A DNA stretch of 43,126 nucleotides, taken from Nitrospirota bacterium (GTDB lineage Bacteria; Nitrospinota_A; UBA7883; JAJRTC01). The notes under the pieces were generated by a model. That model was not told the origin of the DNA. It was given only the letters and a program-made list of their open reading frames with translations, and did not search any database. Both the position numbers and the translations under genes were made by a program. Positions 2,716 to 29,829 of the stretch are shown piece by piece (position 1 is the stretch's first letter; the number at the start of each line of letters is the position of its first letter). Where the stretch lies: positions 1 through 43,126 of the forward strand of contig JAJRTC010000202.1 in assembly GCA_024278445.1 (NCBI GenBank). The letters are read 5' to 3'.

Positions 2716-3516
2716 ATGAGTGTCGTTACATTAACCACAGATTTTGGAGACGCAGACGCCTTCGTCGGCATGATGAAGGGTGTTATGTTAAGCATAGATC
2801 CATCCGTAAGGTTTGTTGATATCTCGCACAAGGTCGCACCACAAAACATACGAGAGGCGGCATACCTCATCGCTACCGCGTTTGAATATTTCCCTGACGA
2901 TTCTGTTCATCTCTGCATCGTAGACCCTGGGGTGGGGTCTAACCGGCGGGCTTTAGCCTTCAAGGCGGGCGGACATTATTTCGTTGGCCCCGACAACGGT
3001 ATTTTTACGAATATTCTGCGCAGGTATACTTCTGTTAAAGCCTATGAGCTTGCCAACAGGGAAAAGATGGTGCTCTCAGTTTCGAATACGTTTCATGGCC
3101 GAGACGTTTTTGCACCCGCATCGGCATGGATAGCAAAAGGCGAGCCATTGCACGCTTTCGGCCCCGTTATTGAAAAACCTGTTTTACTATCATTGCCAGA
3201 GCAGTTGCGTTCCGCCCCCAACCTTATAGAAGGTGAGGTCGTTCATATAGATAACTTCGGAAATGCTATAACGAACATCACACAAAACCTTGTGGAACAC
3301 GTGCGGTTAGACTTTAAAGCCGAAAGAATGGAGATAGCGATAAAATCACATTTATTGACAGAAATTATGCAAAGCTACAGTTTTGCCGATGATAAAAAAA
3401 CCTTGTCGGCACTATTCAGCAGTTTCGGCACTCTTGAGTTTTTCGTAAAAAACGGATCGGCAAACTCCATGTTTGAACTATCGCCCGGCGACCATGTTGA
3501 AATCCGTTTTTTTTAG
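2716..3516 (+). CDS. SAM hydrolase / SAM-dependent halogenase family protein (DUF62, S-adenosyl-L-methionine hydroxide adenosyltransferase-like)
   Basis: The motifs TLTTDFGDADAFVGMMKGV, CIVDPGVGSNRR and VGPDNGIFT are typical of the DUF62 family. Confidence 0.8.
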   Translation: MSVVTLTTDFGDADAFVGMMKGVMLSIDPSVRFVDISHKVAPQNIREAAYLIATAFEYFPDDSVHLCIVDPGVGSNRRALAFKAGGHYFVGPDNGIFTNILRRYTSVKAYELANREKMVLSVSNTFHGRDVFAPASAWIAKGEPLHAFGPVIEKPVLLSLPEQLRSAPNLIEGEVVHIDNFGNAITNITQNLVEHVRLDFKAERMEIAIKSHLLTEIMQSYSFADDKKTLSALFSSFGTLEFFVKNGSANSMFELSPGDHVEIRFF

Positions 3517-4696
3517 GCTTTCACTCATCACCGTTTTTTCGCTCACCTCCGGGTGCCAAACTTTACGTGACCTGCAACTACAGACACCGGCACTTGAAAC
3601 GGTTTATGATTTTGATATGGGCCTGCCTGACGATATGGACTTTGCGTCGCTTGAAACGGCGGCAAACGAATCTATCAAGTACTACGAAAAATTAAAACCG
3701 TCCAGGATATTTCGTGTTGGCGGTAGAAAAGTTTCTGTAAAAGCTCTTTTAGCGTCGGTCAAAAGAATAGTGACCATCTTCAAGCAAACGAAGGATGCGA
3801 AAGAACGGGAGCGCATCATACTGCGAGAGTTTAATATCTACAGGGGAACAGGGCATTACAGGCTGGGAAATGTTCTTGTAACCGGATATTACCAACCTGT
3901 GTTAAACGGCTCGCTAACAAAAAATAAAACGTTTAAATGGCCCCTCTACGCCAAACCTCCCGACCTCGTAACCGCAAATCTTGGTGATTTTTATAAAAGC
4001 CTTAAAGGAAAAAGAATTACGGGACGCGTAAAAAATGGAAGACTCATCCCCTATCACGACAGGACGGCGATAGACAGAAAAGGCGTTTTGGCCGACAAAG
4101 GCCTTGAGATAGTTTGGGTAGACGACCCTGTAGACGTATTTTTTCTTCAGGTGCAAGGCTCGGGCGTCGTACGCCTGTCAGACGGGACAGAGTTTTATGC
4201 CAACTATTCTGCAGTAAACGGCAGGGCATACCGTTCCATCGGCTGGTTTTTGATAAAGAATGGTGCCATACCAAGAAAAGATATGTCGCTTACGGCTATC
4301 AGAAAGTGGCTTAACGAAAATCCTGACGAGCTTGAGCGTGTGCTCGACTATAACCCAAGTTACGTCTTTTTCAGGCGTATGAACGACGGGCCCTTCGGCT
4401 CAACGGGCGCAAAACTTGTTGCAGGCCGCTCCGCCGCGTTTGATCCGCGACGGTTCCCTAAAGGGGCTCTCGCCCATATAACTGTAGATACACCCGTTAT
4501 AGAAAATGGCGAGGTCATAAAATGGAAAAAGGTTGAAAGATTCGTTTTCAGTCACGATCGGGGCGGCGCAATTAAAGGGACTACCAGGATGGATCTATTC
4601 TTCGGGAAGGGAGACAACGCGGGCTTACGGGCCGGATTCATGAAAAACCCCGGCACACTGCTGTTTTTGGTGTTAAAAGATCGATTTGTTGGGTAG
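3494..4696 (+). CDS. mltA: Membrane-bound lytic murein transglycosylase A
   Basis: Lipoprotein signal (LTSGC) when started at ATG 3494. MltA-type motifs are present (YYQP, GSGVVRLSDG, GRSAAFDP, DRGGAIKG..RMDLFFG). Confidence 0.8.
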   Translation: MLKSVFFRLSLITVFSLTSGCQTLRDLQLQTPALETVYDFDMGLPDDMDFASLETAANESIKYYEKLKPSRIFRVGGRKVSVKALLASVKRIVTIFKQTKDAKERERIILREFNIYRGTGHYRLGNVLVTGYYQPVLNGSLTKNKTFKWPLYAKPPDLVTANLGDFYKSLKGKRITGRVKNGRLIPYHDRTAIDRKGVLADKGLEIVWVDDPVDVFFLQVQGSGVVRLSDGTEFYANYSAVNGRAYRSIGWFLIKNGAIPRKDMSLTAIRKWLNENPDELERVLDYNPSYVFFRRMNDGPFGSTGAKLVAGRSAAFDPRRFPKGALAHITVDTPVIENGEVIKWKKVERFVFSHDRGGAIKGTTRMDLFFGKGDNAGLRAGFMKNPGTLLFLVLKDRFVG

Positions 4697-4708
4697 TGGG
4701 TCAGTTTG
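4693..4708. repeat. Solo terminal motif GTAGTGGGTCAGTTTG of the dispersed inverted-repeat family
   Basis: The same 13-16-mer precedes GTCATTCTGAG arms at 18584, 24177 and 28723, and occurs inverted at 24318-24334. Here it overlaps the mltA stop codon and no arm follows it. Confidence 0.5.
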
Positions 4709-4755
4709 AATCCTAACTCCCTCGCATTGTATTTATCTCTATGCGATCATAACGT

Positions 4756-5002
4756 ATGGACAAGAAACCGAAAAGACCTAGAGAGACCCAAGCCAATTGG
4801 CTCATGCCGTTGTGAAAGCCGCTACAGAAGGCGAAGAAGAACCTATTAATGACGGTAAAACCCTGCCCCAGTTGAATTAGGCCGTCTTGGTGGTAAAAAG
4901 GGAGGAGTAGCCCGCGCCAAAAAACTCACCCCTGAACAACGTAAAGAAATAGCCCCAAAAGCCGCTAAAAAGCGGTGGGAACTTGATAATAATAACAAAT
5001 AA
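4756..5002 (+). pseudogene. Small lysine/arginine-rich protein gene (..GRLGGKKGGVARAKKLTPEQRKEIAPKAAKKRW), disrupted by two frameshifts
   Basis: Three consecutive frames read MDKKPKRPR / DPSQLAHAVVKAATEGEEEPINDGK / NPAPVELGRLGGKKGG...KRWELDNNNK*. The shifts lie near 4779-4785 and at the A4 run 4857-4860, where one more A would restore GKNP. Confidence 0.6.
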
Positions 5003-5145
5003 TTGCCCTTTTTATTCCTGCCGCCTCTCAACTCATTAAAAAAACAACAACATAGGCTAGTTAATCAAATCCTCCTTTTTCTTCCCTAAACTTTACAATA
5101 GTGCTAGCATATACGTGTAACTTAAATTCATATAAGGTTTTACCA

Positions 5146-5829
5146 ATGAAAAAGAAAAATGCCAACGAGGAGCTTTTTAACGTTCTTGGCTCCGATATCC
5201 CAATATCCTTTCTTCGCGATATTCCGCACATTCAGGTGCAGTCGTATAGCGAGGCCAATGAGTGTGTTAAAAATGACTATAGGTTTGCTGAACCTGAAGC
5301 AAAATACCTTTTGCCGCATATACGCCGAGCAAAGTTCGAACAGCTTTTCCGCCGACGCGCACTAGATTGTGGGCTTGTAGCAACAGTTGAGAGCACAAGA
5401 AAAAATGCGAATTACACTTTAGTTCGAGCTGGCAGATTTCTGCTTACCGCTTCGTTTGCTCATAATGAAAAGGAATTTGTGCGCCCTGCTCATTTTCGCT
5501 CACAACACGCTTACCTTAATTCGCTTCTAGGCCAGATGGACATGTTTAAGCCCAAAGGTGATGTCCCTCCCAATGATCTTTACGGCATCATTCGTCATGG
5601 AGTGTCCAAAACTAAAAGTGAATCTAAGAGGGACGAAGAGTCCAAAGATGAGAGCTATTTTTTAACAATAGCTATTCCATCCGAAGACAATAAAAGTTGG
5701 GTAGGGAATTATGACTTATTGGATATGATAAAAGTCAACGAAGAAAGAATTAACAGAATGGATTCTGCAGAAGAATTAGATATAGCAGTTCCAATGCCTA
5801 AACGTAAGGATATTCAAGGGGGGGAATAA
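5146..5829 (+). CDS. Hypothetical protein with no recognisable domain; candidate toxin/effector partner of the downstream HTH-peptidase
   Basis: Long ORF (the track gives 5101..5829; ATG 5146 MKKKNANEE is preferred). The stop TAA 5827-5829 abuts the next ATG. AT-rich codon usage. No TM segment or catalytic motif was seen. There is a charged KTKSESKRDEESKDES stretch. Confidence 0.6.
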   Translation: MKKKNANEELFNVLGSDIPISFLRDIPHIQVQSYSEANECVKNDYRFAEPEAKYLLPHIRRAKFEQLFRRRALDCGLVATVESTRKNANYTLVRAGRFLLTASFAHNEKEFVRPAHFRSQHAYLNSLLGQMDMFKPKGDVPPNDLYGIIRHGVSKTKSESKRDEESKDESYFLTIAIPSEDNKSWVGNYDLLDMIKVNEERINRMDSAEELDIAVPMPKRKDIQGGE

Positions 5830-7032
5830 ATGGGAGTTCCAAACACTGGTTTCTTTGGTGCACGGCTTGTTCAAGCAAGGGAGGTGAGGGGTTTATCTTG
5901 TTCTGACATAGCGCGTCAAATAGGGGTTACAAGAGCTTCTGTATCTAATTATGAGTTAGGTAAACAGTCCCCTCGACCCGATATGTTGGAAAAAATAGCT
6001 TCAATGCTAAATGTACCAATACCCTTTTTCATGCGTCCAGTTCCAGAGTTTAAGCAGAATACTGTTTTTTACAGGTCTAATACGACGGCAACAAAAGGTG
6101 CAAGAAAAAGAGCTGAAAAACGGTATGAATGGCTTCAGGAAGTAGTTGTCTATCTGCAAGAGTATTTTGATTTTCCAACTCTTAATCTTCCCACTCTTGA
6201 TATTCCAAAAGATTTTGAAGAAATTTCTATGGATATGGTTGAAGAAATAGCTCTGGAATGTAGAAAATTCTTTGGGATTGATCCGGGGCGAGTTCGCAAC
6301 ATGGTTTTACTCTTGGACAATAATGGCGTCCTTGTTCCTCAAGGTTATTTTGAAGCTGAGAAACTAGATGCATTTTCGGATACGCCTGCAGGGGGCCATC
6401 CTTTGGTTTTTCTTGGTTTGGACAAAGCTAGCGCCGTACGATCTAGATTTGACGCGGCACATGAATTGGCCCATCTGTTGCTCCATAAACATGTAAATCA
6501 AAGACATATAAACGGCAATAGAGCTTTTAAAATCATAGAAAATCAAGCGCACAGATTTGCTGGTGCCTTTCTCCTGCCGGAAAGTGATTTTTTAGAAGAA
6601 CTATGGTCTCCGAATTTAGATACATTCCGCGCGTTAAAATCGCGTTGGAAAATATCTATAGGAGCGCAAATAATGCGGTGCACTCATTTAGAAATCGTTC
6701 CAGAAGACCAATTAAAACGATTGTGGATAAACTATAATCGAAGAGGCTGGAGAAAAAACGAACCACTAGATGATAGGTTGGAAAGAGAGGAAAGTCGAGT
6801 GTTGCGGAGAAGCTTTGAATCTTTGATTGGGGGGAATATTAGGAGCAAAGAACAAATTCTTATGGATTTAAGGTTGCCGTCGGGGGATATTGAAGAGTTC
6901 TCAGGCCTTCCAATCGGTTTCTTTTCAGATAAAAAAGCTGAGATACTGCCTTTACCTAGAGTAAAGAACGCAAAAGAAAACGCTTCAAAATCAAGTGAGC
7001 GAGGGAGATTGATTAATTTCCCCAAAAGGTAA
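5830..7032 (+). CDS. XRE-family helix-turn-helix fused to an ImmA/IrrE (COG2856, peptidase M78) zinc metallopeptidase domain
   Basis: N-terminal HTH (LSCSDIARQIGVTRASVSNYELGKQSP), HELAH at 6460-6474 followed by ENQAHRFAGAFLLPE and KSRWKIS. A strong SD (AAGGGGGGG) lies upstream of ATG 5830. Confidence 0.85.
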   Translation: MGVPNTGFFGARLVQAREVRGLSCSDIARQIGVTRASVSNYELGKQSPRPDMLEKIASMLNVPIPFFMRPVPEFKQNTVFYRSNTTATKGARKRAEKRYEWLQEVVVYLQEYFDFPTLNLPTLDIPKDFEEISMDMVEEIALECRKFFGIDPGRVRNMVLLLDNNGVLVPQGYFEAEKLDAFSDTPAGGHPLVFLGLDKASAVRSRFDAAHELAHLLLHKHVNQRHINGNRAFKIIENQAHRFAGAFLLPESDFLEELWSPNLDTFRALKSRWKISIGAQIMRCTHLEIVPEDQLKRLWINYNRRGWRKNEPLDDRLEREESRVLRRSFESLIGGNIRSKEQILMDLRLPSGDIEEFSGLPIGFFSDKKAEILPLPRVKNAKENASKSSERGRLINFPKR

Positions 7033-7182
7033 TTTGTGCGGATTCATAAGTCTTTGAGGGTGACTCCTGCTATGGAAGCGGGCGTGACTGACAGGCTATG
7101 GAAGATAGAGGGAATATGCGAGTTAGTTCAAGAGGAAGCACCGAAGAAGCGAGGCCCCTACAAAAAGAAAAATTCAAACTGA
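7033..7182 (+). mobile_element. Remnant resembling the conserved C-terminal tail of a transposase-type protein (..VRIHKSLRVTPAMEAGVTDRLWKIE..)
   Basis: A 49-codon open frame starts directly after the stop of the previous gene with no ATG (only GTG 7036). From memory, the RIHxxLRxTPAMxAGVTDxxW tail is seen at the ends of some IS-encoded proteins. The catalytic part is absent. Confidence 0.4.
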
Positions 7183-7206
7183 GACACTACCCTTTGTTGG
7201 CGCCTA

Positions 7207-7234
7207 TTGACATTCGGGTGCCAGGTAATATAAT
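7207..7234 (+). promoter_or_regulatory. Sigma70-type promoter with consensus hexamers (TTGACA - 16 nt - TATAAT)
   Basis: TTGACA at 7207-7212 and TATAAT at 7229-7234. It lies 28 nt upstream of ATG 7262, with GAGGGG in between as SD. Confidence 0.6.
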
Positions 7235-7261
7235 CTCTGTTTTTTTATTACCGAGGGGCCA

Positions 7262-8797
7262 ATGCGCCAGAATCAGTATCTCGAACAGTTCAACACCATT
7301 CCACCTCTTGTAATGGAAGCTGTCGGCAAGGATCACACTCAAAAAACGCCTTCCCCAAAAGTCAGAAAAGAGATAGTGAATCGGATATGGATGGAACAAC
7401 CGTGGGGGGCGCATCCTGTTCAGGACATAAAAGGGCGCAAGCTTGAGATTCTCTCGCCAGGCTGGCTAAACGGCGGAGACGGGCCAGACTTTAAAGGAGC
7501 GCTTTTCCGGTATGACGGTGGCGACCAGGAGACAGGAGACGTAGTTATCCATGTTCGCTCCTCAGACTGGCTGAGGCATAAACACCATCGTGATTTAGCC
7601 TATAACGACACGAGGTTGCATGTGGTGCTATATTGCGATGCCATGTGCGAGCCAAGATTAACAAGCATGGGTGACGCTATTATAGAAGTGGAGCTTGGCA
7701 CAGTGTGCGCCAACGCTATAGACCGGATACGCGCAGAAGCCGAAATGGAACCTTCCAACAAAATTCCACAGGAACTTGCGGGCCGTTGTTCTTCTGCCAT
7801 GGCACGCATAGGGGGCGAGAGGGGAGGCACCCTTCTCGATGCGGCCGGCGAAACCAGGCTTGAGCTTAAATCGCGCAGATATTCTGAGGCCATTAAAAAA
7901 GGTGAAGGCGAAGAAGAGCTTTACTGCGGGCTTTTAGAAGCTTTGGGATACAAAGCGTTTAAAAACCAGTTTGAGCGGCTTGCTCGCGGTGCAACCCTTG
8001 GTAATATTCGCCTGTATCTTGAGGATATAAGGCAGAGCATGAGGCCTATCGCATTGCAGGGTTTGTTGCTAGGAGCGGCTAACCTGATTCCAAGCCCTCT
8101 TCTTGTTGCAAAAAAAGTTGATAAAGAAACAGCTGTTCATCTTGGATTGCTATGGGAAGCGTGGAATAGCGCACAAGATAGCGAAATGTTTCGGCCCGCC
8201 CTTACGGCTAGCGAATGGAAAGTGCCCGGAACACGCCCGGCAAACTTCCCGTCACGAAGGATAGCTGGCCTCGCCCATTTTCTCGCCGTACACGCAGACA
8301 GCGATCTGCACACACTGTTTATCCACCTTCTTAACGCTTTTCCGGCTGATGGAGACAGAAAAAATGTTAATAAGTGGTTTGACGGCGCATTGAACCTTTT
8401 CCCGCATCCTGAGGATGATTATTGGGCGCGTCGATATTCAATGGGAGGCAAAAGGCTTGAAAAACCACTCAGGTTTATCGGCAGAGAGAAGCTTACGCTG
8501 ATTTTAGTTAACGTACTTCTACCATATGCCATGGCATGCGCCCAAACCGGTGACATAACGTTGAGCAAAAGCAGGATCATGAACATTTACAGGTTCTCAC
8601 CATCCCCTGAACCCAATTCCGTGGTGAAATTTATGGTGGGCAGGTTTAAAAACGCCATGCCTCAAAAAGAACTTGTGCAAAATTCGATTCGACAATACGG
8701 GCTTATGCAGATATATTCCGATTTTTGCGCGGTTGATAGTGGTGAATGCCAATCCTGCGGGTTTGCCGCATACCTTGAGAAGCTCGGTTCTCACTAA
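7262..8797 (+). CDS. DUF2851-like protein
   Basis: The N-terminal region (ILSPGWLNGGDGPDFKGA, HVRSSDWLRHKHHRDLAYNDTRLHVV) matches my recollection of DUF2851. There is a C-terminal CxxC. Confidence 0.55.
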   Translation: MRQNQYLEQFNTIPPLVMEAVGKDHTQKTPSPKVRKEIVNRIWMEQPWGAHPVQDIKGRKLEILSPGWLNGGDGPDFKGALFRYDGGDQETGDVVIHVRSSDWLRHKHHRDLAYNDTRLHVVLYCDAMCEPRLTSMGDAIIEVELGTVCANAIDRIRAEAEMEPSNKIPQELAGRCSSAMARIGGERGGTLLDAAGETRLELKSRRYSEAIKKGEGEEELYCGLLEALGYKAFKNQFERLARGATLGNIRLYLEDIRQSMRPIALQGLLLGAANLIPSPLLVAKKVDKETAVHLGLLWEAWNSAQDSEMFRPALTASEWKVPGTRPANFPSRRIAGLAHFLAVHADSDLHTLFIHLLNAFPADGDRKNVNKWFDGALNLFPHPEDDYWARRYSMGGKRLEKPLRFIGREKLTLILVNVLLPYAMACAQTGDITLSKSRIMNIYRFSPSPEPNSVVKFMVGRFKNAMPQKELVQNSIRQYGLMQIYSDFCAVDSGECQSCGFAAYLEKLGSH

Positions 8798-24176: not shown

Positions 24177-24334
24177 GTGGGTCAGTTTGCGTATTATTGT
24201 CATGCTGAGCCTGTTCGATTCACTTTATTCACTCAAGGCGGGCTCCGCGAAGTATCTTAAATCTATTATTATAGTATCGGGTGTGATTCGAGATTCTTCG
24301 CCTTTGGCTCAGAATGACCAAACTAACCCACTAC
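24177..24334. repeat. Full-length copy of the inverted-repeat element with both terminal motifs
   Basis: GTGGGTCAGTTTG...GTCATGCTGAGCCTGTTCGATTCACTTTATTCACTCAAGGCGGGCTCCGCGAAGTATCTT ... GAGATTCTTCGCCTTTGGCTCAGAATGAC+CAAACTAACCCACTAC. Confidence 0.85.
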
Positions 24335-24385
24335 CGAAAATCTTAATATCTTTTGCGATCATCGGTTCTGCGCTAAAATGTAACA

Positions 24386-26043: not shown

Positions 26044-28683
26044 TCAATGATTTACGTTATCAAGCGCTCTCCTGATAACCTCGCTTAGCACGCTTTTGGA
26101 GATGGGCTTCATCACAAAATCAACAATACCCATGTCGCGCGCAATCTCCTCGTTTACGGTGTGGCTGTAACCTGTGCATAACACAACAGGAGTGTCGGGG
26201 CTAATGCGTAAAACCTCGCGGGCAAGTTCGATACCGGTCATGGAAGGCATCGTTTGATCCGTTAAGACGATATCGAATGATTCAGGTGCCGATTTAAAAA
26301 GATCAAGCGCGTCACACGGATTGGAAACCGCAACAACGTCGTAGCCCAAGCGGCTCAACGAACGTTCAACCATCATCGCGATGCTCTCCTCATCGTCAAC
26401 ATACAAAACGCGCTCGCTACCGCCTGTAGAAAAGATAAAACCGGCCTCGTCCTCAACAACAGGATGTTTCTGAACGGGAAGATAGATGGTGAAAGTGGTT
26501 CCCTTCCCAAGCTCGCTGGAAACGGTTATCAGGCCGCCATGGTCGCACACTATCCCGTGAACCACCGAAAGCCCCATGCCGGTTCCCTCTCCCACATCTT
26601 TCGTTGTGAAAAAAGGCTCAAAAATACGGTCGGCAGTCTCCTTGTCCATCCCGTGCCCCGTATCGCGTATGGTTAAACGCACATAAAAACCGGGTGCCAC
26701 GCCTTCATGTAGCGATGCAAAATCAGCGTCTGCTTCAAAACCGCCAAGAGTTATCTTCAGCACCCCGCCATTTTTACGCATGGAATGCTCGGCATTCGTA
26801 CAAAGGTTCATGATAACCTGCGTTATCTGGGTACCGTTGGCCATTATGGCTGGAAGGCTGTCGTCTATACTTTCACGGATAGATATGGTGGAAGGGATTA
26901 TGGGGCGGAGCATAGCAAGCGTATCCCTTACCACCGTTTGCAAATACACCTGGTTTACGGCTTGCTCCCCGTCTCTACTGAACGTTAATATCTCCGCCAC
27001 GAGATCTTTGGCGCGGGCTCCGGCCTTCAGGGCGGCATCAAGGTTTTCTTTAGCTTCGCTACCTTCTTTCAGGTCATCGTTAGCAAGCTCGGTATAACCT
27101 ATAATGCCTGTGAGGATATTGTTAAAATCGTGCGCTATACCACCTGCGAGAGTGCCTATCGCCTCCATTTTTTGCGAGGCCCGAAGTTTACTTTCAAGCT
27201 TTCGGTCACGGGTCACGTCGCGCTGGAGGCTTACATAGTTAACTATCGCCCCGTCTTGTCCGCGAACCGGGGATATTACGCAATCAGAGTCAAAAAAGGT
27301 GCCGTTCTTTTTTTTGTTAACAAAACGTCCTTTCCAGATGTCACCTGCATATATGGTGTTCCACATCGTTCTGTAAAAGGTTTCGTCCTGTTTCCCGCTC
27401 GACAGGATATCAGGTTTTTTGCCAAGTATTTCTTCCCGGCTATAGCCTGTTACACCCTCGAAAGCCAGGTTGACATACTGGATCGTCCCGTCCTTATCCG
27501 TCATCACAACCATCTCGTCGGCCTGCTCAACAGCCGCCGCAAGACACGCGTTATCTGCGCTGGCGGCTTCTAATGACTTGTAAAAAAACGAAAGTTCACC
27601 TTCAACACGGTTTATGGTTATGTAAAAGAGAACAAACAGGAGCGCACCGGTAACAAGGCTTACGGCGCCAACCAGAAGCACGTAGTAAAGAGCTCCGGCG
27701 ATGACTCCCGTTATGTTCCACAATATATAGAGGCTTGCAACACTTCTACCGGACACATCTTCTAACCGCATGATATTTACGTCATACCGGCTGTTCATAT
27801 CATCTTTGTAAAAGAAATTCGCTATGCCTTTTTTTTCGTCTGAAAATATTTTGTCCCGGCCCGATTTCACAATCTTCAACAAGTTGCCAATATCACCAAG
27901 GGATGTACCTGCGATAACAGAATCCAAAAGGCTGTTCCACTTGCCCTTGTGCCCAAACATCCCACTCCCCTCTTCCCAGTCACTTTGCTTAAGGAGGTTT
28001 TTGTCTATCGTCAGGATAAAATCGACATCAAGCGTGTTCTTTATGTTTTCAAGAATGTGCCCGATCTCCTCCCCAAGCTCCAGGTAGCCTATCAACTTGC
28101 CGTCCACAATCCAGGGTGAGACTACACGGAGGGTTAAATGCCCGAATTTGCCAAGCTCTATCCCGTAAAACAGGTTTTGCGTTTTTTCAGCTTTTAAAGC
28201 TACATAACGATTTATAAGATCACCATAAAACGCAGGGTTGTGCACACGCAAAAAATTCACCCTGTTTGGGGTCTGAAAATAAAAATGTGTAACCTTTTGA
28301 TTTTTACTTAGTTCCTGATAAACAGGATTTGCGGAGGCAAGCAAGGCGCCACGGTCGCCTTTAACCATCAGGGCGGCCAGCTCCCTGTTTTCAGATATAA
28401 AACCTATGGATACGGCCAGGGCGGCGGCGTCTGAATTTATCTGCACCCTGAAAAGCTCAAGGGCAGACTCTGCCAGCCGTTCAGACGCTTCATCGATATC
28501 GCGCAGTTCATGCTGGTATGTGTTAAAAATAAAAACCCCAAGAAAAACTATCAGGGCAAAAGTGAAAGAAACCAGCAAACGGGCCTTGAAATTTATATTA
28601 CCCAAATCATGGTTCCCCCCCACCGAGTTGAGTTTACAGCGAGTTTTCGCAAAAACTAAAACCTTACAACCTCTTGGATTCAT
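26044..28683 (-). CDS. Hybrid sensor histidine kinase / response regulator (periplasmic sensor, PAS, HisKA, HATPase_c, REC)
   Basis: Two TM segments flank a ~300-aa extracytoplasmic domain. Other elements are PAS (MVVMTDKDGTIQYVN), the H-box GGIAHDFNN, G-boxes DTGHGM/GTGMGL, and a C-terminal REC (YVDDEE...DQTMPSMTG). Confidence 0.9.
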   Translation of the reverse strand: MNPRGCKVLVFAKTRCKLNSVGGNHDLGNINFKARLLVSFTFALIVFLGVFIFNTYQHELRDIDEASERLAESALELFRVQINSDAAALAVSIGFISENRELAALMVKGDRGALLASANPVYQELSKNQKVTHFYFQTPNRVNFLRVHNPAFYGDLINRYVALKAEKTQNLFYGIELGKFGHLTLRVVSPWIVDGKLIGYLELGEEIGHILENIKNTLDVDFILTIDKNLLKQSDWEEGSGMFGHKGKWNSLLDSVIAGTSLGDIGNLLKIVKSGRDKIFSDEKKGIANFFYKDDMNSRYDVNIMRLEDVSGRSVASLYILWNITGVIAGALYYVLLVGAVSLVTGALLFVLFYITINRVEGELSFFYKSLEAASADNACLAAAVEQADEMVVMTDKDGTIQYVNLAFEGVTGYSREEILGKKPDILSSGKQDETFYRTMWNTIYAGDIWKGRFVNKKKNGTFFDSDCVISPVRGQDGAIVNYVSLQRDVTRDRKLESKLRASQKMEAIGTLAGGIAHDFNNILTGIIGYTELANDDLKEGSEAKENLDAALKAGARAKDLVAEILTFSRDGEQAVNQVYLQTVVRDTLAMLRPIIPSTISIRESIDDSLPAIMANGTQITQVIMNLCTNAEHSMRKNGGVLKITLGGFEADADFASLHEGVAPGFYVRLTIRDTGHGMDKETADRIFEPFFTTKDVGEGTGMGLSVVHGIVCDHGGLITVSSELGKGTTFTIYLPVQKHPVVEDEAGFIFSTGGSERVLYVDDEESIAMMVERSLSRLGYDVVAVSNPCDALDLFKSAPESFDIVLTDQTMPSMTGIELAREVLRISPDTPVVLCTGYSHTVNEEIARDMGIVDFVMKPISKSVLSEVIRRALDNVNH

Positions 28684-28722
28684 TATAAATTAATTTGACA
28701 AGACAAACAACGCCACAGTTTG

Positions 28723-28775
28723 GTAGTGGGTCAGTTTGGTCGATCTGAACCAAAAGCGAAGAATATCGAATTACA
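28723..28775. repeat. Half copy of the inverted-repeat family, with terminal motif
   Basis: GTAGTGGGTCAGTTTG + GTCGATCTGAACCAAAAGCGAAGAATATCGAATTACA. Confidence 0.7.
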
Positions 28776-28806: not shown

Positions 28807-29829
28807 CTAATTTATCATCACCCGTTTATAGGTTTTCCACTCCTCCAACGCTATCCCAACGCCACGCACGACAGAAGTTAAAGGATGTTTGGCACGATAT
28901 ACCGGAGTTTTCAGTTCCACCTTCAAACGAGCCCCCAGACCTTTTATAAGGGCTCCTCCCCCGGCTAAAACTATGCCACGGGTAAGGATATCGGAAGCAA
29001 ACTCCGGCGTGGTATTTTCCATCGCCTTCTGGACGGCGGCGCAGATAGCATTTACGGGTTCATCAATCGCCTGGCGCACGTCCTCGTCGGTTAAGGTGAT
29101 TGTTTTAGGCATTCCCTTCGTCAGGTCACGTCCGCGAGCTGATGTTTCTATTCTTTTTTTCAGGGGATAAGCGGTTCCTATCTCTTTTTTAATTCGTTCC
29201 GCCTCGAAAATACCTATTTCCAGATTATATTTCTGACGTATAAAACGAGCCATGGCCTCATCCATCTCGTCGCCGGCCACACGGATAGACTCAGTGTAGG
29301 CCGTAGCGTAGATGGAGATAATCGCAACTTCGGTGGTGCCACCGCCGATATCAACGATAAGGTTGCCGCAAGACTCACCAACCGGCATTCGCGTTCCTAT
29401 AGCGGCGGCCATAGGCTCTTCAATAAGATGCACCTGCCGCACGCCAGACGCCATGGCAGAGTCTATTACCGCTTTTTTTTCTACCTGCGTTATACCGGAC
29501 GGGACGCCTATGATGATCTTGGGTTTGCGTGAGAAAAATGACGGCCTCACCGACTTTATGAAATAAGCGATCATCTTCCGTGTCGAGTCAAAGTCGGCTA
29601 TCACGCCATCTTTCATAGGACGTATAACCTCAAATTCGTCCGGCGTTTTGCCATACATGGCCTTAGCCTTCGCACCGATGGCTACGAGTTGGCCCGTATT
29701 ACGGGATAAAACGACCATCGAAGGCTCATCTATCACAACACCCCTCCCGCGTACATGAACAAGGGTATTCGCGGTGCCAAGATCCATAGCAAGATCTGCT
29801 GAAAAAAATTGGGTTAAAAAATCCAACAA
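28807..29829 (-). CDS. mreB: Rod shape-determining protein MreB
   Basis: DLAMDLGTANTLV, IVDIGGGTTEVA and GIVLAGGGALIKGL. Confidence 0.95.
   Translation of the reverse strand: MLDFLTQFFSADLAMDLGTANTLVHVRGRGVVIDEPSMVVLSRNTGQLVAIGAKAKAMYGKTPDEFEVIRPMKDGVIADFDSTRKMIAYFIKSVRPSFFSRKPKIIIGVPSGITQVEKKAVIDSAMASGVRQVHLIEEPMAAAIGTRMPVGESCGNLIVDIGGGTTEVAIISIYATAYTESIRVAGDEMDEAMARFIRQKYNLEIGIFEAERIKKEIGTAYPLKKRIETSARGRDLTKGMPKTITLTDEDVRQAIDEPVNAICAAVQKAMENTTPEFASDILTRGIVLAGGGALIKGLGARLKVELKTPVYRAKHPLTSVVRGVGIALEEWKTYKRVMIN

Follow-up and report, generated by a model that had tools for sequence, protein, structure and literature searches.

The 43,126-nucleotide contig JAJRTC010000202.1 from a Nitrospirota bacterium (assembly GCA_024278445.1), hereafter the window, carries two adjacent genes at positions 5146-7032 that almost certainly form, as judged from their protein sequences, a RosmerTA toxin-antitoxin (TA) and anti-phage module in which the toxin gene rmrT (gene 1) precedes the antitoxin gene rmrA (gene 2). 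An IS1-like insertion sequence (IS) element that spans approximately positions 4692-7191 carries this pair as its cargo. We consider it probable that the locus as a whole is best explained by the combination of a RosmerTA identity, an IS carrier, a general TA logic and a toxin step possibly directed at the sliding clamp DnaN.

RosmerTA has been defined as a Zn-peptidase antitoxin paired with a toxin of unknown function (Millman et al. 2022, 10.1101/2022.05.11.491447). Both proteins of the window match the PADLOC models for this system, which bears out an earlier reading made from the DNA letters alone (the sequence-only reading) in so far as it took the pair for a TA or defence module. Gene 1 is matched by four PADLOC RmrT models in all, among them PDLC03934 (E 2.9e-24, residues 8-194 of 227, profile positions 3-184 of 212) and PDLC03937 (E 5.2e-18, near full length). 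Searched exhaustively with phmmer, a set of 1.84 billion representatives yielded 262 relatives of gene 1 at E <=1e-3, nearly all of them 205-240 amino acids (aa) long and aligned over their full length. The family counts and the structural model described below are based on 88 aligned relatives, which are related sequences, and PDLC03934 matched every one of them (88/88). Because the RmrT models match both gene 1 and all of these relatives, gene 1 is assigned by sequence to the catalogued Rosmer toxin family.

Other resources returned little for this protein. Pfam and NCBIfam gave no match for gene 1, none of the 88 relatives falls convincingly into any Pfam family, and none of the NCBIfam toxin models matches the gene 1 family. 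The PDB holds no sequence relative of gene 1, profile searches included, a tblastn search against plasmids and phages gave no match, and word-indexed homology searches, with the single sequence or with a profile, returned almost nothing. The gene 1 family itself is already catalogued, and it is its mechanism that lacks a description.

Gene 2 matches the PADLOC RmrA model PDLC03948 over its full length (E 2e-133, residues 5-398), in agreement with the statement in the sequence-only reading that a fusion of an XRE regulator with an M78 peptidase is the RmrA component of RosmerTA. Pfam places HTH_3 at residues 15-66 and Peptidase_M78 at residues 174-283, and the ENQAHRFAGAFLLPE block of COG2856/ImmA-IrrE peptidases is present, so that the XRE helix-turn-helix (HTH), the HELAH site and the ENQAHRFAGAFLLPE block proposed from the letters were each found where they had been placed. 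Across 36 homologues, residues H211, E212, H215 and E237 never vary. Weak matches to gene 2 were also obtained with the CapP and CapH models and with the CapP structure. The closest RmrA shares 68% identity with that of the window and is present twice in one metagenome assembly (loci L002 and L003).

Conserved linkage of gene 1 homologues to HTH-M78 genes had been suggested as a check on the sequence-only reading, and such linkage was found in each set of loci. The eight independent loci of gene 1 relatives that were fetched all carry RmrA directly 3' of the toxin gene (8/8). An RmrA homologue lies directly 3' of rmrT in all seven relatives that were traced to contigs (7/7; 25-52% identity to gene 1; phmmer E 1e-30 to 1e-189), with rmrT/rmrA junctions that mostly abut or overlap by 4 nucleotides (nt). 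The same rmrT-rmrA order is found on both plasmids (2/2), Agrobacterium pAtA47a_a and Ligilactobacillus pHN3, where the toxins are annotated just as 'hypothetical protein'. In IMG/VR, the RmrT family of gene 1 abuts upstream of RmrA in 52 of the 80 loci found through RmrA. All 52 pairs fall among the 59 closest RmrA, and the more distant RmrA are paired with other RmrT types. A scan of viral contigs with a single RmrA protein gave no match. On the A. tumefaciens plasmid pAtA47a_a (L210, 1-6185) the pair is surrounded by defence-looking genes, namely an AAA ATPase, an LA2681-family HEPN protein and a DEAD/DEAH helicase, a setting that contrasts with the housekeeping surroundings in the window.

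The organization of the pair in the window (Table 1) is that described in the sequence-only reading, with the open reading frame (ORF) coordinates, the abutting stop and start codons and the Shine-Dalgarno-like sequence inside the end of gene 1 all confirmed from the sequence. This organization indicates that rmrA is translationally coupled to rmrT. The co-translation proposed earlier is consistent with the close spacing in 8/9 related loci, a set that includes the two plasmids, where the genes abut or overlap by 4-23 nt. An alternative upstream start for rmrT, GTG 5101, is possible; homologues start at ATG 5146.

The boundaries of the carrier are given by terminal inverted repeats (IRs) flanked by target-site duplications (Table 1), and no IR match arose by chance when the window was shuffled 100 times. 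Within the left IR falls the stop codon of mltA (TAG 4694-4696), and beyond the right end positions 7193-7210 read on as ttt gtt ggc gcc tat tga (...FVGAY*), presumably the original MltA C-terminus, which the insertion turned into FVG*. Compared with the intact element described below, about 0.9 kb is deleted in the window, most of the transposase gene included. The element entered mltA at its last codons and later lost its transposase while the small gene was frameshifted, leaving the intact module stranded. The window copy is a stranded, non-autonomous IS remnant with intact TA cargo. A search of metagenomes for the empty site, using the reconstructed mltA/DUF2851 junction, gave no match.

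The presence of a decayed IS-like element accounts for two observations of the sequence-only reading. The tract that it described as AT-richer than its flanks has a GC content of 0.39-0.42 over positions 4751-7250 compared with 0.46-0.52 on either side. Its description of an intact pair between decayed neighbours stands as far as the pair is intact and the remnants are real, but these remnants belong to the module's own IS-like element and the nearest host genes, mltA (3473-4696) and the DUF2851 gene (7262-8797), are undamaged. The neighbours of the element in the window are housekeeping genes: mltA, the DUF2851 gene, lptE and hflX. Just beyond the right end of the element, upstream of the ATG of the DUF2851 gene at 7262, lies a perfect 12/12 sigma-70 consensus (TTGACA, 16 nt, TATAAT) at 7207-7234. 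Elsewhere in the window, solo matches to the IS end sequence occur at 28722-28738, which reproduces its first 17 nt exactly and falls between the ORFs 26044-28683 and 28807-29829, and at 24323-24335 (the first 13 nt, one mismatch). Both are possibly remnants of further copies.

Two copies of the intact element, a 3355-bp block with 100% identity between them, lie at unrelated sites within a single metagenome assembly (L002 3892-7244 and L003 3892-7244). The block ends in perfect 20-bp inverted repeats, GGTAGTGGGTCAGTTTGAAT, perfect 8-bp direct repeats flank both sites, and its content comprises a gene for a 75-aa basic protein, rmrT, rmrA and a gene for a 280-285-aa DDE transposase. The full transposase in L002 ends ...FVRIHKSLRVTPAMEAGVTDHLW and scores 57 bits against the IS1 model NF033558, whose cut-off is 100, with a faint match to Pfam DDE_Tnp_IS1. 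Perfect 8-bp duplications surround five of the six complete copies (L002, L003, L060, L100 and L118). Across species-representative genomes, the exact 20-mer GGTAGTGGGTCAGTTTGAAT is present in at least 120 stretches (L010-L129) from many phyla, including Acidobacteriota, Actinomycetota, Proteobacteria, Chloroflexota, Nitrospira, Planctomycetota and Verrucomicrobiota. Among the 120 stretches, the transposase is present in 38, the small gene in 29 and both in 20; RmrT is present in none (0/120). The remaining 73 have neither transposase nor small gene within 8 kb and may therefore be solo ends or miniature inverted-repeat transposable elements; in L054, two ends lie 48 nt apart.

Several sister copies carry cargo between the small gene and the transposase (Table 1). 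Homologues of PD-Lambda-2_B (E 6e-46 and 9e-44) are part of this cargo, as are an HEC-04 ATPase (E 2e-52), a P63C protein, a Bro-N protein, an SDH-type protease, and an HTH protein that matches the PDC-M64 candidate models of PADLOC and lies next to an ORF without a match. Because sister copies hold other cargo at this position, the slot that holds RosmerTA is a general cargo slot, often with defence genes, and the element gives the impression of a vehicle that shuttles small defence or TA modules.

Table 1. Coordinates of the rmrT-rmrA module, its carrier and cargo-bearing sister copies (window positions unless another locus is named)
Feature	Position	Strand	Description
rmrT (gene 1)	5146-5829	+	227 aa; ATG 5146, stop TAA 5827-5829
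rmrA (gene 2)	5830-7032	+	400 aa; ATG 5830 directly abuts rmrT TAA 5827-5829
Shine-Dalgarno-like AAGGGGGGG	5816-5824	+	within rmrT 3' end, 5 nt ahead of rmrA ATG 5830; read from the sequence
XRE HTH of RmrA	~5854-6027	+	Pfam
M78 peptidase of RmrA	~6349-6678	+	Pfam; followed in RmrA by a conserved C-terminal region
HELAH	6460-6474	+	HEXXH site of RmrA, intact
QMDMF	5533-5547	+	codons of RmrT Q130-M-D-M-F134; canonical beta-clamp-binding-type motif
Left terminal IR	4692-4711	+	GGTAGTGGGTCAGTTTGAAT; same sequence as the IRs of the intact L002/L003 element, which are perfect
Right terminal IR	7172-7191	-	18/20 positions match left IR
Left target-site duplication	4685-4691		TTTGTTG; 7/8 positions match right copy
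Right target-site duplication	7192-7199		directly after right IR; TTTGTTG on both sides
Small basic protein gene, remnant	4756-5002	+	frameshifted; 75 aa when intact, ends ...KKLTPEQRKEIAPKAAKKRW...; three-frame translation, blastn to L002 4045-4176
Transposase 3' stub	7036-7182	+	last 48 codons, ...IHKSLRVTPAMEAGVTDRLW...; blastn of window 7033-7102 to L002 7116-7185
Cargo-bearing sister copies	L014 1830-2981; L065 6201-7376; L037 1961-3445; L060, L061, L075, L082		slot between small gene and transposase

We then modelled the toxin. AlphaFold2 run from the single RmrT sequence gave an unusable model, with a predicted local distance difference test score (pLDDT) of 34; this was remedied by the 88-sequence alignment, which raised the pLDDT to 89.1 with a predicted template modelling score (pTM) of 0.83. 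The model shows three N-terminal helices followed by a mixed alpha/beta domain and has no transmembrane (TM) segment, so RmrT is predicted to be a soluble alpha/beta protein. The sequence-only reading had seen neither a TM segment nor a recognisable family in gene 1; the former observation stands and the latter gives way to the PADLOC RmrT family. The structure prediction it had asked for yielded a confident model that matches no solved fold: Foldseek matches were not significant either in the PDB (best E 0.023, TM-scores at most 0.37) or in BFVD (best E 5.6e-3), and none reached E 1e-3. ART, Tpt1 and HEPN-like folds were considered from the conserved Arg and His residues and dropped, as none was among the Foldseek matches.

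Polar residues are strongly conserved in the family, with R118 invariant (88/88) and R60, H151, T101, N125, E65 and E51 also conserved. The charged KTKSESKRDEESKDES stretch, noticed earlier as a linker, is real and corresponds to a lineage-specific loop insertion (pLDDT 64-77). The C-terminal tail (residues 212-219, window 5779-5802) is conserved as D-x-A-x-P-x-x-K/R, with D212 in 60/88, P216 in 75/88 and K/R219 in 83/88 relatives. It is a region of lower confidence in the model and is followed by basic residues. Possible roles for the tail are a degron, such as one for ClpX, and a site of recognition or cleavage by RmrA.

The single low-confidence internal loop of RmrT (residue block 131-140, pLDDT 63) carries the sequence QMDMF. 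Canonical beta-clamp-binding motifs have the form Q-phi-x-[LM]-[FL] or Q-phi-x-[LM]-x-[FL] and often lie in loops; the E. coli Pol III alpha motif is QADMF and the consensus QL(S/D)LF (2024 review, PMC11139829). At the aligned loop, the strict motif was found in 17/88 members (for example QLSLF, QLDLF, QMELF and QVDMF) compared with 0.6 on average and at most 4 in shuffles and with 2 matches in the other 90% of residues; when relaxed at position 2, it was found in 45/88 members (shuffles mean 2.7, maximum 8; 15 matches in the other 90% of residues), counts that overstate independence because the family members are related. An independent viral set shows the same motif pattern together with variants of the TPDLF, NNDLF and QMSLL type. 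In a second RmrT family (PDLC03935/03932; IMG/VR loci L189-L209, upstream ORFs of about 220-240 aa), each of the 12 distinct members that were sampled (12/12) has a motif of this type in the corresponding relative position, in forms such as QFDMF, QLELF, QLALF, QSSLF and QLKLDF. Profile comparison detected no similarity between this family and the RmrT family of gene 1 (hhalign probability 0.4%).

A precedent for a Rosmer toxin connected to the clamp is RipA (Spr1630), the toxin of the pneumococcal Rosmer TA system, whose antitoxin Spr1629 (RipB) is an XRE and ImmA fusion (Maziero et al., 10.1101/2025.09.02.673660; PLoS Genet 2025, PMC12795458). Suppressors of RipA are dnaN mutations that cluster in the hydrophobic partner-binding pocket and abolish the two-hybrid interaction (PMC12795458), and ClpX is required for keeping RipA harmless (10.1101/2025.09.02.673660, PMC12795458). 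Neither version of that paper mentions a motif (10.1101/2025.09.02.673660, PMC12795458). The loop motif of RmrT, together with the published RipA genetics, therefore suggests a block of the DnaN pocket for RmrT as well.

Judging by the family and the literature, we regard the following general logic as likely. RmrA would repress the operon through its HTH domain and keep RmrT harmless until it is inactivated or overridden in response to phage or stress; the probable sensor or switch is the M78 domain, as in ImmA, IrrE and CapP. RmrT set free would then arrest the cell. For the arrest itself, we give roughly even chances to a mechanism in which QMDMF, on the only flexible loop of RmrT, docks into the hydrophobic partner-binding pocket of DnaN; such docking would evict polymerases and stop both chromosome and phage replication, as the genetics indicates for RipA. 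A broader proposal is more tentative and falls somewhat short of even chances: that the main RmrT families (PADLOC 03934/37/33/38/40 and 03935/32) are sliding-clamp poisons bearing Q-phi-x-[LM]-[FL] on an exposed loop of a novel fold, with RosmerTA aborting infection via the DnaN pocket, and that a widespread IS1-like element (20-bp ends in at least 120 stretches) with a dedicated slot shuttles RosmerTA, PD-Lambda-2-like and HEC-04 modules.

Several observations weigh against this explanation. Roughly half of the gene 1 family has no Gln-initiated motif, a third RmrT type, PDLC03942 (L175/L184), has no motif, and the motif counts come from related sequences. The comparison with RipA covers the antitoxin and the kind of motif that RmrT carries. 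On the antitoxin side, RmrA aligns with the NCBIfam spr1629 family (NF052239) over model positions 2-373 of 377 (E 1e-57) with a score of 195.9 bits that falls below the family cut-off of 335. Searches of phage and plasmid records brought up no streptococcal entry. A search for a promoter or operator upstream of rmrT found nothing convincing. In addition, apart from RipA, the only Rosmer toxin for which the literature consulted demonstrates a cellular effect is RmrT(D5) of the Gordonia phage Kita, a membrane depolariser with C-terminal TM helices that belongs to an anti-phage RosmerTA with an ImmA-type antitoxin (Ernits et al. 2023, PMC10440598). Mechanistically, Rosmer toxins are thus a heterogeneous group. 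Finally, clamp plugging alone leaves the conserved Arg, His and Glu residues of RmrT (R118 invariant; R60, H151 and E65) unexplained, and these hint at an added, possibly enzymatic function. That this conserved surface serves a second function in nucleic-acid binding or catalysis appears to us unlikely; alternatively, it could be an interface with RmrA or ClpX.

The same residues bear on a different reading of the toxin, in which RmrT is an enzyme acting on nucleic acid, with a divergent PD-(D/E)xK-type or other phosphate-binding fold, and the loop motif, if functional, is just a replisome tether. The weak Foldseek matches in the PDB recur on PD-(D/E)xK nucleases (Hjc, which is the best match, EcoRV, McrC and RecE), those in BFVD are to exonuclease and PD-(D/E)XK proteins, and the order of secondary-structure elements in RmrT (helix, three strands, helix, strand) is compatible with a PD-(D/E)xK core, while conservation of R60, R61, R69, R113, R118, H58, H151, E51 and E65 points to a site for phosphate binding or catalysis. 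However, these matches stay short of significance and of high TM-scores, a conserved D...(D/E)xK is absent, with T101-A-S103 at the strand-3 position and Y90 carried on the strands, and even profiles reveal no sequence relative in Pfam, NCBIfam or the PDB. We judge this reading to have a low probability. A further reading concerns the role of the pair rather than its chemistry. The pair might mainly work as an addiction or stabilisation module, using post-segregational or post-excision killing on behalf of the mobile element that carries it and having no phage-defence role in the host, which is compatible with the clamp mechanism. The module does lie inside an IS-like element among housekeeping genes and not in a defence island, it remained intact while the rest of the element decayed, as an addictive pair would, and antitoxin loss is lethal in other Rosmer systems. 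Yet RosmerTA protected against phage in two studies (PMC10440598, 10.1101/2022.05.11.491447), sister IS copies carry the defence genes PD-Lambda-2_B and HEC-04 in the slot, and RmrT/RmrA pairs are common on (pro)phage contigs, leaving addiction as the main role a rather unlikely but serious alternative.

Phage records label homologues of gene 2 as 'cI-like repressor' or 'transcriptional regulator', PHROGs puts gene 2 itself into a 'transcriptional regulator' family (E 9.5e-95), and its HTH and M78 domains are the ones found in ImmR/ImmA and CapH/CapP. These points would fit an ImmR-ImmA- or cI-style repressor/antirepressor switch of a mobile element with gene 1 as a non-toxic accessory. The carrier, however, is a 2.5-kb IS remnant with nothing left for regulation, and the strict co-occurrence with RmrT and the published lethality of antitoxin deletion fit a toxin partner, making such a switch very improbable. 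Least probable of all is the proposal of the sequence-only reading that the pair is a novel two-gene module whose unrecognised partner belongs to an undescribed effector family. Gene 1 has no Pfam or NCBIfam match and no solved structure, and public records say 'hypothetical protein', but the PADLOC RmrT models that match it and all 88 sampled relatives refute the proposal in the sense of an uncatalogued family. Taken together, we retain the RosmerTA module with a possibly clamp-directed toxin, carried by an IS1-like element, as the best explanation.

The locus itself is routine, in that any PADLOC or DefenseFinder run would call RosmerTA, and the parts of wider interest are the clamp-motif lead and the cargo-carrying IS1-like element only. 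A conserved clamp-binding-type motif in two RmrT families without a described mechanism, combined with the 2025 RipA genetics, offers a cheap and specific test. If true, the clamp model could account for the killing or arrest of cells by a common anti-phage TA system. The IS1-like carrier with its variable slot shows one way in which defence modules of two genes travel between distant phyla and end stranded in housekeeping regions.

Among known systems, the module most closely follows the RosmerTA of Millman et al., which likewise has two genes with the toxin first and an antitoxin combining an XRE-HTH with an M78 Zn-peptidase. In that work a ΔrmrA strain was unobtainable by transformation, and RosmerTA defended against phage (10.1101/2022.05.11.491447). 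The window module differs in its location on a decayed IS1-like element instead of in a defence island and in its toxin subtype, which has no described mechanism. It shares the Rosmer architecture with RipA/RipB of Streptococcus pneumoniae, RmrA being aligned over nearly the whole spr1629-family model, if below its cut-off, and the RmrT motif belongs to a class that binds the DnaN pocket, the site to which the RipA suppressors map. Kita RmrT(D5)/RmrA is similarly a RosmerTA with an ImmA-type antitoxin; gene 1, in contrast to the Kita toxin with its TM helices, lacks a TM segment and is modelled as a soluble alpha/beta protein. In SocAB of Caulobacter crescentus, the toxin acts on the hydrophobic pocket of the clamp and ClpXP takes part in toxin control (PMC12795458, discussion); its antitoxin is of a different type.

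The carrier resembles the IS1 family in inverted repeats that begin GGTAGTG, in 8-bp target duplications and in a single-ORF DDE transposase with weak IS1 similarity. It departs from IS1 and from passenger-carrying ('transporter') IS in its extra gene for a small basic protein and in the variable cargo slot between this gene and the transposase, and the window copy has no transposase. The regulatory half of the module recalls ImmR/ImmA of ICEBs1, DdrO/IrrE of Deinococcus and CapH/CapP of CBASS, in which an XRE repressor and a COG2856/M78 metallopeptidase form a switch triggered by stress or phage. Unlike these pairs, the RmrA of the window fuses both functions in 400 aa, adds a conserved C-terminal region and would control a toxin.

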